Source: Ktedonobacterales bacterium
GTDB lineage: Bacteria > Chloroflexota > Ktedonobacteria > Ktedonobacterales > DATBGS01
Assembly: GCA_036557285.1 (NCBI GenBank)
Contig: DATBHW010000007.1
Coordinates: 17,657 to 81,656 of the forward strand
Reading direction: 5' to 3'
Length of the DNA: 64,000 nucleotides
A program made the position numbers and the translations under genes. The first letter of the stretch is position 1, and each line of letters starts with the position of its first letter. The notes under the pieces are model-generated. The model was not told where the DNA came from. It saw nothing but the letters and a program-made list of their open reading frames with translations, and ran no database searches. Of this stretch, positions 3,498-61,018 are shown in pieces.

Positions 3498-4440
3498 CCC
3501 TGGTCTCCCGTCTCCATTTGCTGGCCCTCTGTCGGTTCGCGGTACGCCTGGCGCAGCGGCGGTGTCCACCCCCTTTACCAGCTGGTCCCGGAGGGCATCC
3601 GAGGGTCTACTCGTGACGCTTCGTTGTTGCTGATCGCCTTGCTCCGAACACTCTGGCGTCTCTCCTACCAGGATATGCGCGATTGGTTGCGTAGTTGGCC
3701 GACCTTGGCGCTCGCGTGCGGATTGCCCTCGATGCCCATGGTCAGCGGCGTATCCCCTCTCCTTCCCAACAGTGGAAACGTGAGCGGGCTGCCGGAGCCC
3801 CGGTAGGCGAGGCGTTGCTTATCCTGGCAGTGCAAATTGCCATCCGCTGTCGGCTCATCGGCGCTCGTGAGCCTCTTCATCGATAGCGCCCCCATCCTGG
3901 CGTGGTGGCGACGTGATCCTGATGCCCAAGTGAGGCACGCTCCGGCGCACCACCCACGTCCGCTGTTACGGGGGTACCGGGTGCATACCCTGCTGTGCCG
4001 GGGTTCGGGCTTGCCGCTGCTCTTTCTCTTGTCTCCCGCGAGCGTGCATGATGCGCCCTTTGTCCGACCGCTGCTTGCCTGGGCAGTCTTGCTCTATCGG
4101 CTGCGTCCTCGTATCATCCGCCTGGATGCGGGGTATTGGGGTTTGCGTCTGATTGCCTGGATTCATTCGGCGTTAGGCGCGGAGGCGGTGGTCCCGTGGA
4201 ATCCCAAACGGCAACGCAACCGCTCCTGCTTGCCACCCACCTGGACCGCCGAGGAACGCGGGCCTACGCACGAGCATTGAACGGTTCTTTGGGCGCGGCT
4301 TCAGCCTGTTCAGTTACTTCCGCGTGCCTCGCCCGCCCCTGTGTGGCTGGTCGGCAGTAGCAAGGCGGGTGGCTTTGACCTATACTGCCACGATTGTTGT
4401 CGCGCTTCTCTGCCTATCAGGCAGGACGGCCTGATCTCAT
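3398..4440 (+). mobile_element. IS remnant: IS4/IS5-superfamily DDE transposase pseudogene with at least 4 frameshifts
   Basis: Transposase-like peptide is spread over four listed ORFs (3398-3616, 3624-3806, 3695-3886, 3837-4280) plus an unlisted frame after 4261 ('SIERFFGRGFSLFSYFRVPRPPLCGW...'). Typical segments are 'LLLIALLRTLWRLSYQDMRDWL', 'IDSAPILAW', 'LLRGYRVHTLLC' and 'IRLDAGYWG'. A 1-nt insertion makes an in-frame TGA at about 3610. Ends and inverted repeats were not determined. Confidence 0.75.
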
Positions 4441-48680: not shown

Positions 48681-48852
48681 TTTCCACCTCCCTGAACCGC
48701 CGGATGATGATTGACATCCGGCCTCTACTTCCCTGGACCCCTGCACAAACACTGGCGCGCCCCTTCACTTGATGCCTAGCGTATCATGCGGTTACGTCAA
48801 CGTCAATTTGAGCGCGCTGTTCCACACGAGGTTCTGCCAAAAAGCGGGGCCA

Positions 48853-49040
48853 CTTGTAGCGCCGCCGTCCCGGCGGCAGGGGCTGCGGGGCGGTGTACCT
48901 GTAGCGCCGCCGTCCCGGCGGCCAGCGTTGGCCTGCTGGCGCCGTGGCCCGGAGGGCGAACGCTCGCCCTGGCGCAGCGTCCAGCCGCCGAGACGGCGGC
49001 GCTACCAGTGGCAGCCCCCGATAATTGGTGGAACCTCCAC
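48853..49040. repeat. REP-like mosaic element, family B, copy 1 (two tandem heads + 58-bp module + inverted head + tail)
   Basis: TGTAGCGCCGCCGTCCCGGCGGC occurs at 48855 and 48900, GGCGGCGCTAC at 48995, and the tail is GGCAGCCCCCGATAATTGGTGGAACC. Confidence 0.85.
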
Positions 49041-49167
49041 ACGATGACCTGTTGACCTGCTCTTGCCGGTGTGGTAGAATAATGCCATATCCTTTCCGTT
49101 CACGTCAAGGTGATGGGCCTTCAGCAGACCAGCAGAAGACACCCCAGGCAAACGAGGTAGAAGATCA

Positions 49168-55821: not shown

Positions 55822-55911
55822 CGCTTCTGCCCTCCTCACCAGGGGATACGCTCGCATATCGCACGCCATCAGTTCTAGCAAAAATGAGGTGTTGGCAAGC
55901 GAGGCATGGTA

Positions 55912-56152
55912 CTTGTAGCGCCGCCTTCCAGGCGGCCAACGCTGCGCCAGGGCGAGCGTTCGCCCTCCGAGCCAACGCACCAGCAGGCCAGCGTTGAGCC
56001 GCCAGGAGGGACGCGCGAGCGAGGCGCAGCCGAGCGAGAATGGCCGCGCCCCAGTTCCCGCAAGGGCCGCTCCCCGTAGGGGGAGGCAAGCGGCCCTTCC
56101 CGAAGGGGGGCGGCGCTACAAATGGCAACCCCCGATAGGTGGTGAAACTCAC
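55912..56152. repeat. REP-like mosaic element, family B, copy 2 (58-bp module inverted relative to copy 1)
   Basis: Head CTTGTAGCGCCGCCTTCCAGGCGGC at 55912, inverted head GGCGGCGCTACA at 56109, tail GGCAACCCCCGATAGGTGGTGAAAC. Confidence 0.85.
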
Positions 56153-56230
56153 GCCATCCAGAGCCTTGACTCTCAAGAGAAGCCATGCTATAATTGTAAT
56201 ACTTCCACATAGTAGATAGTATTCCAATAT

Positions 56231-58454: not shown

Positions 58455-59268
58455 TCGTGGTTTTTCATTCATCCAGATGAACCAGCGCGAGGCAAAGCCC
58501 CGTAGTCGCGGCGTGACAGAGATTCGCGGCCCCTACTACACGCCGATGGGGAAACGCTACCTGGAGGACGTGTTGGAAACGATGGGGGCTTACGTGGATT
58601 CGTTGAAGTTCGCGGGTGGCTCTTTCACGCTGATGCCGCCCAACGCCCTGAAGGAGATTATCGAGGTGGCGCATCGCCACGATGTTCTGGTATCTACAGG
58701 TGGGTTTATCGAGCATGTACTCACCCAGGGGCGCGAAGCCGTCCACCGCTATATCGAGGAGTGCCGCAAGGTGGGATTTGATATTGTAGAAATCTCCAGC
58801 GGATTTATTACGATCCCGGTTGACGACTGGCTGCGGCTGGTGGAGCAAGTCCAGCAGGCAGGGCTGAAGGCCAAGCCGGAGGTCGGCATCCAGTTTGGCG
58901 CGGGGGGCGCCAGCGCCGCTGAAGAACTTGAGGCCGAAGGTACCCGCGATGTCGAATGGGCCATCGGCCAGGCCAGGCGTTTTCTGGAGGCCGGGGCTTA
59001 CATGATTATGATCGAGTCCGAGGGGATTACCGAAAATGTAAAAACCTGGCGCACCGACGCAGCCGCTAAAATCATCGGCGCGCTGGGGCTGGAGAAAGTG
59101 ATGTTTGAGGCAGCAGACCCGGAGGTGTTTGCCTGGTATATCAAGAACTATGGCCCGGAGGTCAATCTCTTCGTTGACCACAGCCAGATCGTCCAGCTTG
59201 AGTGTTTGCGCTCAGGCATCTGGGGGACGAAGAGTTTGTGGGGGCGGGTCTTGACCTACAAAGGATAA
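58447..59268 (+). CDS. ComA-family protein ((2R)-phospho-3-sulfolactate synthase-like)
   Basis: 'KPRSRGVTEIRGP', 'GAYVDSLKFAGGSFTLMP', 'VSTGGFIEHV', 'GFDIVEISSGFITIP' and 'KPEVGIQFG' match the ComA family pattern. 8-nt overlap with the prpD-like gene. Confidence 0.7.
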   Translation: MSDRGFSFIQMNQREAKPRSRGVTEIRGPYYTPMGKRYLEDVLETMGAYVDSLKFAGGSFTLMPPNALKEIIEVAHRHDVLVSTGGFIEHVLTQGREAVHRYIEECRKVGFDIVEISSGFITIPVDDWLRLVEQVQQAGLKAKPEVGIQFGAGGASAAEELEAEGTRDVEWAIGQARRFLEAGAYMIMIESEGITENVKTWRTDAAAKIIGALGLEKVMFEAADPEVFAWYIKNYGPEVNLFVDHSQIVQLECLRSGIWGTKSLWGRVLTYKG

Positions 59269-59273
59269 TTATA

Positions 59274-59363
59274 CTTGTAGCGCCGCCTTCCAGGCGGCTC
59301 GTCGTCTGGCCGCCTGGAAGGCGGCGCTACAGGCGCCCGCCGGTTTTTGGTGGAACCAAAAAG
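59274..59363. repeat. REP-like element, family B, copy 3: REPIN-type perfect 23-bp hairpin plus tail
   Basis: TGTAGCGCCGCCTTCCAGGCGGC-tcgtcgtctg-GCCGCCTGGAAGGCGGCGCTACA, then GGTTTTTGGTGGAACCAAAAAG. It lies 6 nt after the comA-like stop. Confidence 0.9.
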
Positions 59364-59425
59364 TCCTCTTTGCTTGACTGAGCCAGTGCTTATCTCTATC
59401 ATGCTCAGGGATCGTCTTAAGAGCG

Positions 59426-59514
59426 CCTCACACAACCTCCGCACGAGCAGGGGCGGGGTTGGAGCGCCGTCCTTCCAGGCGGCAGGGGTGGGGCCACCCG
59501 TCGGTTGTGTGAGG
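59426..59514 (+). repeat. 89-bp palindromic intergenic element, family A, copy 3
   Basis: CCTCACACAACC...GGTTGTGTGAGG; the inner unit begins GGAG. It lies 25 nt before the TPR gene start. Confidence 0.9.
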
Positions 59515-59539
59515 CATTCTAAGCACTGAGGAACGCTCC

Positions 59540-61018
59540 ATGAAGAACCTGCTCAAGCTCTTGAAAACCCCCGCCTGGCAGGAGCGGCTGGCAATGACTG
59601 ATGTCTGGGCGACGCGCTTCACGCTCATCGCCCTCGTGCTGCTGGCGTTTGGCAGCGCGGCCCAGGCTCCAACCGAAGAAACCATCTTGCAGGCCGGTCT
59701 GGCCGCGCAGGGTCAGCAAGAATACTGGCGCGCCGAATCATTCTTTCAGCAGGCCGCGCTCATTGCGCCGGATGATTTCCAACCATTGTTGGACCTCGCT
59801 CGCCTGCATCTGCTGGAGCATCGGGACGCTCTGGTCCAGAGCGAACTGGAGACCGCGCGCACCCTGGCAAATGACAACGCCGACATCTGGCTCACGTTGG
59901 GCGATGTCGCCCAGGATCAGGGACACTTGCAAGACGCCGAACATGCCTGGCTTCAGGCCGCCCGTCTGAACCCGGTGGCGGCCCAGGTGCGGGCGCGCCA
60001 GCGGCTGGGGCTGTTCTACGAGCAGCAGGGCCGCTGGCAGGATGCCGAAACGCAATTTGCCGCCCTGCCGGGCAGCGATGCGCTGGCGCAGTATCACCTG
60101 GGCGTGCTGCGCCTGGCGCGAGGCGACCGGGCTGGCGCGCGCCAGGCGTTCGAGGCTGCCCTGGAGCAGACCGACGACGGGGCTTGGCGCGATGCAGCGC
60201 AGCAATTTCTGCAAGTGATCGATCAATGGAACGGCAGCGCCGCGAGCGAGAAGCTGGTCGGGTTCGCCTACATCAAAAACAACTTTCCAGGGCTGGCGAC
60301 AGCGCCGCTTAAGCAAGCCGTCGCGCTCGCCCCAAAGGATGCCGCCGCGCACGCCTATCTTGGCTGGACCTATCTTCAGGCCGGATCGTCAGGCCAGGCG
60401 CGACAAGAAGAAAACCGGGCAGTGGCGCTGGACCCAGGCAACAGCTTTGCCAGCTATACCCTCAGCCTGCTGGACCTCGCGGATGGGCGCTATAGCAGCG
60501 CCATTCACGATCTTGAGCAGGGACTCAGCGCCGACCCGCGAAATCCTGCCCTATGGGCCACACGCGGCGCTATCGCTGAACAACTCAGGGATCTGCCTGG
60601 AGCCGAGCTTGCTCTGCGCCAGGCCGCCGCTAACGCCGGAGGCGACCCACGCTTCAGCCTGCTGCTGGCAAATTTCTATGTCAACCACCAGATCGGGTTA
60701 GATCAGGGAACGGCGCTGGCCGCAGCCCGACTAGCCATCGTGCTTGACCCCACCAACGGGCTGGCTTATGATACCCTGGGGCGCATCCAGCAAGCCGTGC
60801 GCGCCTACCCCGATGCTATGAGCGCCTTTATACAGGCGGCCAATCTTGCCCCCACAAACGCAGCGCTACACATGCATCTGGGCACTGTGCAGGCAACCCT
60901 GGGATACCTTCGCTCTGCTGAACTGAATCTGCGCAAAGCCATTGTGCTGGACTTTAACGGACCCGTTGGTCGCCAGGCGCAGCAGGCGCTGCAAGCGTTG
61001 TCGCCTTTGGGTATCTAA
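59540..61018 (+). CDS. TPR-repeat protein with N-terminal signal/anchor helix
   Basis: Hydrophobic N-terminus 'FTLIALVLLAFGSAAQA', then more than 8 TPR-like units (e.g. 'AHAYLGWTYLQAGSSGQARQEENRAVALDPGN'). GAGGAA RBS. Confidence 0.8.
   Translation: MKNLLKLLKTPAWQERLAMTDVWATRFTLIALVLLAFGSAAQAPTEETILQAGLAAQGQQEYWRAESFFQQAALIAPDDFQPLLDLARLHLLEHRDALVQSELETARTLANDNADIWLTLGDVAQDQGHLQDAEHAWLQAARLNPVAAQVRARQRLGLFYEQQGRWQDAETQFAALPGSDALAQYHLGVLRLARGDRAGARQAFEAALEQTDDGAWRDAAQQFLQVIDQWNGSAASEKLVGFAYIKNNFPGLATAPLKQAVALAPKDAAAHAYLGWTYLQAGSSGQARQEENRAVALDPGNSFASYTLSLLDLADGRYSSAIHDLEQGLSADPRNPALWATRGAIAEQLRDLPGAELALRQAAANAGGDPRFSLLLANFYVNHQIGLDQGTALAAARLAIVLDPTNGLAYDTLGRIQQAVRAYPDAMSAFIQAANLAPTNAALHMHLGTVQATLGYLRSAELNLRKAIVLDFNGPVGRQAQQALQALSPLGI

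Follow-up and report, generated by a model that had tools for sequence, protein, structure and literature searches.

A GTAG-tagged REP family, largely arranged as REPINs, in a probable REPtron system of a Ktedonobacterales genome

What kind of repeat forms a perfect hairpin just behind a ComA-family phosphosulfolactate synthase gene of an uncultured soil bacterium, and what spread it? The bacterium belongs to the Ktedonobacterales (Chloroflexota), and the locus lies in a 64-kb stretch of contig C7 of its genome, here called the window. A first-pass annotation had read the interval 59274-59363 as a REP-type repeat. This held for its larger part, which is a REPIN at 59273-59334; the segment 59335-59357 proved to be a solo MITE arm. 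In window coordinates, the features of the locus are:

59273-59334, no strand: short REPIN of two identical units, GTAG outward, with a 10-nt spacer and ACTT/AGG(C) feet, forming a perfect 23-bp hairpin
59277-59298, plus strand: T-type REP unit (GTAG + GCCGCCT / TCC loop / AGGCGGC), found by pattern match
59309-59330, minus strand: T-type REP unit in inverted orientation, found by pattern match
59335-59357, plus strand: solo right arm of an ISKra4-derived MITE, GCGCCCGCCGGTTTTTGGTGGAACC, matching the ...CCCCGCTTTTTGGTGGAACC arm variant and one of 64 partnerless arms
59374-59402, plus strand: sigma-70-like promoter, TTGACT-17 nt-TATCAT (10/12 matches; 0.1 expected)
59415-59524, plus strand: 'family A' MITE of ~108 bp with 21-nt TIRs (46-51 genomic copies, median identity 95%)

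The two facing units and the stem at 59276-59331 were as first described: both units are GTAGCGCCGCCTTCCAGGCGGC, 10 nt lie between them, and an additional pair, T59276/A59331, brings the stem to a perfect 23 bp. Folded as single-stranded DNA, this stem reaches -34.9 kcal/mol, where shuffled sequences give -15.4 ± 2.2 (z = -8.75); a single T-type unit of the copy, with its 7-bp stem and 3-nt loop, reaches -8.7 kcal/mol. The ComA-family gene ends with TAA at 59266-59268 and the 23-bp stem begins 7 nt later, not 6 nt as first stated. The next gene, starting at 59540, codes for a TPR protein. Between the two, the -35 box of the promoter-like site starts 17 nt past the GGAAC of the MITE arm, a register that recurs genome-wide, and the family A copy sits between this site and the TPR start codon, that is, in the would-be 5' leader. 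At 59461-59483 the family A copy itself contains a REP-like unit, GGAG CGCCG-T-CC TTCCA GGCGGC.

For the arm at 59335-59357 we found neither a left arm nor a target duplication, and there is no upstream copy of AAAAAGTCC. Of the two TIRs and the 9-bp duplication that characterize an ISKra4-derived MITE, the locus at 59273-59357 has the right arm alone. Because a short REPIN is here joined to a solo right arm with no left arm or duplication, the window copy is a truncated composite, a short REPIN with one surviving MITE arm. An empty site was sought in three sister genomes (G001, G002 and G003); in these, other genes follow the ComA-family gene, and since synteny stops at its stop codon, no empty site was obtained.

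We then considered the repeat in the whole assembly, a 97%-complete draft of 5.12 Mb in 82 contigs with 59.8% G+C. The unit is GTAG + CGCCGCC-N-TCY-N-GGCGGC, with a 7-bp stem and a 3-nt loop, and the genome-wide count proposed with the first-pass annotation gave 880 non-overlapping units at no more than 2 mismatches, in 468 clusters dispersed over the contigs. The sequence GTAGCGCCGCC occurs 833 times in the genome and the exact 22-mer of the window unit 291 times. Intergenic bias, also proposed as a check, was strong: 27 of the 880 units (3%) fall in predicted coding sequence, compared with a coding density of 83%, so that 97% lie outside predicted genes, the split being that of a crude, home-made codon-usage gene caller. 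A palindrome forming a stem-loop, an unpaired tetranucleotide, a high and dispersed copy number and an extragenic location are the features of the GTAG super-family of REPs, and all are present here. Conservation extends upstream over 6 nt, (c)cACTT|GTAG, with C in 94% at -3 and T in 72% at -2.

The NTCYN loop consists of a closing base pair around a TCC or TCT loop, and this pair defines subfamilies: T..A (~290 units), A..T (~213) and G..C (~113). The closing pair covaries (T-A, A-T, G-C), non-complementary combinations amounting to ~2%, and because the variation is compensatory the 7-bp stem is kept. A fourth subfamily, GTAC CGCCGCC GTCCCT GGCGGC, adds ~110 further units. On 513 strict hairpins the head was GTAG in 403, GTAC in 54, GCAG in 20 and GGAG in 17. 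The first-pass annotation had pointed out a close variant of the unit inside the family A elements, with heads differing at the second base. The variant is real, and genome-wide the inner unit of family A carries GTAG in 36 copies, GCAG in 3 and GGAG in 7.

Pairing, the third of the proposed checks, was equally clear. Neighboring units face GTAG-outward in 220 pairs and GTAG-inward in 19. Spacers of the outward pairs fall into two classes, 60-62 nt (152 pairs) and 9-10 nt (34-36 pairs), the latter being the class of the window copy. The 60-62-nt class corresponds to a 113-bp element with an internal hairpin, whose arms often differ in subtype (A with T), and G pairs with G. These are inverted REP doublets with a conserved spacer, far commoner than any other arrangement, which is what the term REPIN denotes. 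Of the 468 clusters, 197 are singlets. Among single and tandem units, 169 are on the C-rich strand and 86 on the G-rich strand (odds ratio 0.26, p = 2e-7). This bias is consistent with a strand-specific, single-strand process. The GTAG strand is the C-rich strand; if G>C denotes the leading strand in this genome, IS608 would have predicted another polarity. Exact empty sites were sought in the sister genomes for seven naked REPINs; the flanking genes were found in each case, and no exact boundaries were recovered because the intergenic DNA of these genomes is too diverged to align. At one of the seven sites a decayed REPIN is present in G001.

Since the annotation had predicted a REP/REPIN system and suggested a search for a Y1 transposase gene (PF01797), we examined the assembly for such genes. 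PF01797 matched at six places, on contigs C55, C12, C38, C72, C79 and C29 (partial). The match on C72 is a normal IS605 with TnpA and TnpB, separate from the REP-associated tyrosine transposases (RAYTs). Three proteins, on C55, C12 and C38, are RAYT-like: they measure 213-226 aa, share 53-66% identity with one another, and score 81.4, 82.5 and 83.5 bits with the NCBIfam model NF047646, 'REP-associated tyrosine transposase', a margin of only 1-3 bits over its cut-off of 80. With the IS200 model they reach 18-26 bits, below the cut-off of 55. The only solved structure that they match is that of E. coli TnpA-REP, PDB 4ER8, and this match is weak (24 bits, E = 2.9e-4). The HUH motif (H127-V-H129) and the catalytic Tyr187 align with 4ER8, and PNHVH and (I/V)xYVxQNP, invariant in the three RAYTs, align with its PEHMH and DYIYINP. 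The gene on C38 lies at the end of an open frame of 501-509 aa (C38:25871-27376) that overlaps a TPR gene in another frame; a fusion protein was rejected, the upstream part being judged an alternative high-GC frame of the TPR gene.

REP units stand on either side of two of the three RAYT genes. At the C55 gene these are A/T-type units, four to a side, the closest ones lying 27 nt from the stop and 42 nt from the start codon; at the C12 gene they are of the G-type, headed by GGAG and ~30 nt away at either end. For the C38 gene a single GTAC..GTCCCT unit was found, ~110 nt upstream. The closest RAYT loci are in G002, a genome of the same genus, where a 74% orthologue of the C38 RAYT has the GTAC..GTCCCT type on both sides and where a T-type doublet identical to the window unit precedes a 72% orthologue of the C55 RAYT. 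From these neighborhoods, the GTAG A/T-types, to which the window copy belongs, are probably the partners of the C55 RAYT, while the C38 RAYT would pair with the GTAC..GTCCCT type and the C12 RAYT with the GGAG G-type. Among the RAYT genes of the assembly, none has the commonest type, T, alone as its immediate neighbor; the link from the T-type to a RAYT runs via mixed A/T doublets and the G002 orthologue. The earlier guess that head variants mark different systems was partly right, because the RAYT genes are flanked by differing REP types, with GGAG at the C12 gene and GTAC at the C38 gene.

How widely is this pair of repeat and enzyme distributed? Exact REP units number 636 in this genome, 52, 5, 2 and 4 in genomes of the same family, and 8 and 1 in two more genomes of the order; the remaining genomes among the 30 relatives searched have none. 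In this set, the large REP population is specific to this species. RAYTs 50-60% identical to those described here occur in Acidobacteriota, Planctomycetota and others, and 28 of 80 related RAYT loci in other phyla are flanked by GTAGCGCC plus a hairpin. The stems at these loci are GCCGGC/GCCGGC, GCCAGC/GCTGGC or GCGGGC/GCCCGC, which are compensatory changes. Since related RAYTs across phyla are flanked by the GTAGCGCC hairpin, enzyme and hairpin are co-conserved. Of four acidobacterial genomes searched, one lacked the pattern and three had 5-35 copies.

With 880 units, outward pairing and three RAYT genes, the prediction that this genome carries a REP/REPIN system was borne out. We consider it probable, at roughly 85%, that the repeat is a GTAG-tagged REP family, largely in the form of REPINs, within a REPtron system of this Ktedonobacterales genome. 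In such a system, a single-stranded REP unit would fold into a G+C-rich hairpin of 7 bp with a 3-nt loop, preceded by GTAG and the conserved aCTt foot. The RAYT proteins, as predicted HUH/Y1 single-strand DNA transposases, most likely recognize the hairpin together with GTAG. Cleavage would most likely occur at the CT adjoining GTAG, by analogy with E. coli TnpA-REP, which cleaves at a CT 5' or 3' of the REP and for which GTAG is essential (PMC8266576). If the RAYTs act on these repeats as this analogy suggests, cleavage may have allowed units and doublets to spread between genes without target duplications.

The MITE arm at the window copy raises a competing explanation, and the other copies in the window bear on it. 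Here the REP pattern has 6 matches at no more than 2 mismatches, and 0 in 100 shuffles. Besides the locus discussed above, they belong to two elements:

48830-49035, no strand: complete composite MITE, GGTTCTGCC...GGTGGAACC, with three G-type REP units at 48856, 48901 and 48984 (minus strand)
55871-56149, no strand: complete composite MITE, AGTTCTAGC...GGTGAAACT, with a left REP at 55915-55936 and a right REP split by a nested insert

The unit copies previously listed at 48856, 48901, 48984 (minus) and 55915 were all recovered. What had been listed as an inverted copy at 56109 is just half a unit, the outer one, with its hairpin split by the nested insert of ~100 nt. Both elements have TIRs and a 9-bp target duplication, the features that define an ISKra4-derived MITE here: TCCACACGA at 48821-48829 and 49036-49044 for the first, and a perfect CACGCCATC at 55862-55870 and 56150-56158 for the second. 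The orthologous site in G002 lacks the MITE at 48830-49035.

The nested insert, at 56005-56105 of the window, is a third element, which interrupts the REP hairpin at one exact point, between GCCGCC and the loop. It is found at many loci genome-wide (e.g. C2:8170, C16:71100), starts with (T/C)CCCTTCGGGAAGGG, ends with CGCTCGCGCGTCCC and is built from 1-4 modules of ~72 nt; this number of modules explains why the MITEs grow in steps (159, 231, 303 and 376 nt from one arm motif to the other). REP loops seem to be a target of the third element, in a manner reminiscent of IS1397 in E. coli.

Genome-wide, arms of the form GGTTC(Y)(N)(S)CAA... enclose many REPINs; one type of arm is GGTTCCACCAATTATCGGGGG (or its ..GCCAAAAAGCGGGG variant), the other GGTTCTAGCAAAAATGAGGTGTTGGCAAGCGAGGC. 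In 132 paired-arm elements of 120-390 bp, perfect 9-bp target duplications were found in 66 and matches of at least 7/9 in 109; a displaced control peaked at 3-5 of 9. The sister genome G001 has a 2076-bp element with identical ends that encodes a 434-aa ISKra4-family transposase (241 bits with the family model, cut-off 205). REPINs are the core of ~120-390-bp MITEs with ISKra4-family terminal repeats, and these MITEs were moved by a DDE transposase, supplied in trans, that made the 9-bp duplications. No match to the G001 transposase was found in this assembly, nor an IS1595-type gene. An autonomous element sharing the MITE ends was also sought, and no arm pair with a duplication exceeded 460 bp. 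Four DDE_Tnp_1 genes that pass the Pfam cut-off, and a fifth, sub-threshold match, were rejected as movers of the MITEs since they have other ends. A DDE_Tnp_1 (IS4/IS5-type) transposase fragment also lies in the window at 3963-4199 (C7:21619-21855), inside a 277-aa frame, with ends unrelated to the MITE arms.

The MITEs typically landed 16-18 nt upstream of -35 boxes. TTGAC stands exactly 17 nt beyond 35 of 227 arm ends, with 0.2 expected per position, and is then followed, at 17 nt, by a TATAcT-like box. This -35 register is present on one side in 44 of the 109 complete elements, and on both sides in none. Such targeting has been described for ISKra4-group elements, which insert 13-17 bp upstream of sigma-A promoters (PMC3942029).

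Could these MITEs account for the whole family? The hairpins would then be the inner part of the ISKra4-MITE terminal repeats, spread by a DDE transposase alone, with the RAYTs as mere neighbors. Such an origin draws on the 187 of 468 clusters (~40%) that adjoin a MITE arm, and on the target duplications, which belong to the DDE-type MITE shell and are the only direct signature of insertion found; the sole clean empty site, that of the element at 48830-49035 in G002, is likewise that of a MITE with its duplication. We nevertheless regard it as improbable. An arm is absent from the other 281 clusters, and at 154 the flanks are unique to either side, so a large part of the family does not depend on the MITE shell, although a part of the doublets moved as MITE cargo. 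No MITE arm lies within 1.5 kb of the REP clusters that flank the RAYT genes, and the ISKra4 element of G001 shares the outer 20-24 nt of the arms without containing a REP. The GTAGCGCC hairpin next to related RAYTs in other phyla and the strand bias of the single units, which fits a strand-specific single-strand mechanism, also speak against a DDE transposase acting alone.

More improbable still is an origin without mobility, in which the hairpins are host regulatory signals (terminators, stabilizers of mRNA 3' ends or insulators) kept by selection. The position of the units gives this idea some appeal: their distance to 3' gene ends has a median of 64 nt and is no more than 27 nt for one unit in four, single units share their strand with the preceding gene more often than not (106 vs 71, p = 0.01), and the window hairpin stands between a stop codon and the next promoter. 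Yet an intrinsic terminator at the window hairpin was rejected, as no T-tract directly follows the stem (a T5 run begins 11 nt beyond it), and no terminator-like site was called in 59150-59650. REP units occur alike in tandem, convergent and divergent spacers, thus just as often where promoters diverge, and in Rfam nothing came up but generic hairpins of miRNA precursors that scored far short of the threshold, arguing against a known RNA family. Hundreds of near-identical copies, strong differences in copy number among species of one genus and the linkage to RAYTs indicate amplification rather than independent origin.

Returning to the REP/REPIN system, a broader reading would have one hairpin sequence served by two unrelated transposition systems, RAYT and ISKra4-MITE. 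We put this forward tentatively, as somewhat short of an even chance. It comprises the co-conservation of the RAYT clade and the GTAGCGCC hairpin across Chloroflexota, Acidobacteriota and Planctomycetota, and the delivery, by MITEs that carry REPINs as cargo, of a very stable hairpin to a fixed place ~17 nt upstream of promoters, where it could serve as an insulator against read-through. If it is true, the more than 10-fold burst in copy number relative to sister species would be due to REPINs hitch-hiking in MITEs.

The first-pass annotation knew of no such system in Chloroflexota-like genomes. They are not new to the phylum: GTAG REPs have been reported in Chloroflexi, namely GTAG-23 of Thermomicrobium roseum (Di Nocera 2013, PMC3733652), and RAYTs of Group 4 are reported to be common in Caldilineae (PMC5581495); in the literature that we searched, no paper linked Ktedonobacter to REPs in this sense. 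With the GTAG REPs of the 2013 study the present family shares the 5' GTAG, a perfect stem (6-9 bp in that study) with a 2-3-nt loop, subfamilies with complementary stems, a predominance of head-to-head dimers and a mostly intergenic location; some of those families are embedded in longer palindromes, an arrangement already described then (PMC3733652). The host here belongs to another class, Ktedonobacteria, and the likeness drawn here to GTAG-23 is one of description. GTAG-23 forms a few large blocks, whereas the copies here are dispersed over all contigs, many of them inside MITEs with TIRs and target duplications.

This system also resembles those described from Pseudomonas and Enterobacteria (Bertels & Rainey 2011, PMC3116915), whose RAYTs belong to groups 2 and 3 (PMC5581495), the groups known for large REPIN populations. 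Shared features are inverted doublets that have a conserved spacer and form a long hairpin, copies running into the hundreds, REP or REPIN clusters that bracket the RAYT genes, several RAYT paralogues each with its own REP type, and palindromes that are short and perfect, as for group 3. The mixed A and T arms of the 113-bp doublet are rather like the Y and Z REPs of E. coli. In contrast, the host here is a member of the Chloroflexota and not of the Gammaproteobacteria, and the RAYTs are distant from E. coli TnpA-REP, with RGYLPHWE at the N-terminus and, following the first strand, a helical insertion of ~55 residues. As in IS200/IS605, the transposase is of the Y1 HUH type, the hairpins are subterminal and have a guide tetranucleotide at their 5' side, and no target duplications are expected. 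At many of the related RAYT loci the gene stands between hairpins of one and the same strand, which recalls the left and right ends (LE and RE) of those elements; the low IS200 scores of the RAYTs set them apart. With the ISKra4 group (p-MULT 4, Guérillot et al. 2014, PMC3942029) the MITEs share the 9-bp duplications and insertion upstream of -35 boxes in either orientation, in addition to terminal repeats identical to those of the G001 element. Unlike ISKra4 insertion sequences, the elements here are non-coding and have a REPIN, not IS remnants, as their core. This nesting of REPINs in MITEs is the least ordinary feature of the system.

To our knowledge, work on large REP/REPIN populations has been confined almost entirely to Gammaproteobacteria, and ~900 units with three RAYT paralogues in a 5.1-Mb genome place this population among the larger ones outside that class. 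A constant GTAGCGCC head combined with compensating stems across phyla offers natural enzyme/substrate pairs for the recognition of perfect-palindrome REPs, and REPINs inside promoter-targeting MITEs provide a tractable case of interaction between a single-strand HUH and a DDE system. Short-read assemblies break at these repeats, which also give rise to long spurious reading frames and are located beside promoters; they should be masked or modeled whenever such soil bacteria are annotated or their gene expression is studied.

Several smaller observations concern related elements. The family A MITEs have 21-nt TIRs, CTAAGAGCGCCTCACACAACC..., and one internal REP-like unit with a 1-nt insertion; they are flanked by CT(A/T)AG on both sides, which looks like a TNA target duplication of the IS5/IS427 type. 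The only MITE shell found without a REPIN is at C5:80521-80588, where the arms join directly (…GAGGCGTGTTACTGGTGGCCCCGCTTTTTGGTGGAACC), and is either an empty precursor or the result of a precise REPIN loss. Around short and long REPINs there is a second palindromic frame, ...TAATACCA(A/C)ATCC...GAAGCGGAGCG..[REPIN]..AAGTCGAAGCCGCAAGCAT...GGATTTGGTATTA, with copies at C22:66006, C3:33520, C3:112789, C35:12854, C65:3733, C72:20094 and elsewhere. It resembles another MITE-like shell, and one copy lies ~150 nt upstream of the IS605 tnpA on C72. Finally, a REPIN with one GTAG and one GGAG end occurs inside a longer repeat in at least 6 copies (C34:85719, C35:3, C52:108741, C71:14220, C74:20970 and C78:16283); as several of these are at contig ends, the larger repeat probably breaks the assembly.
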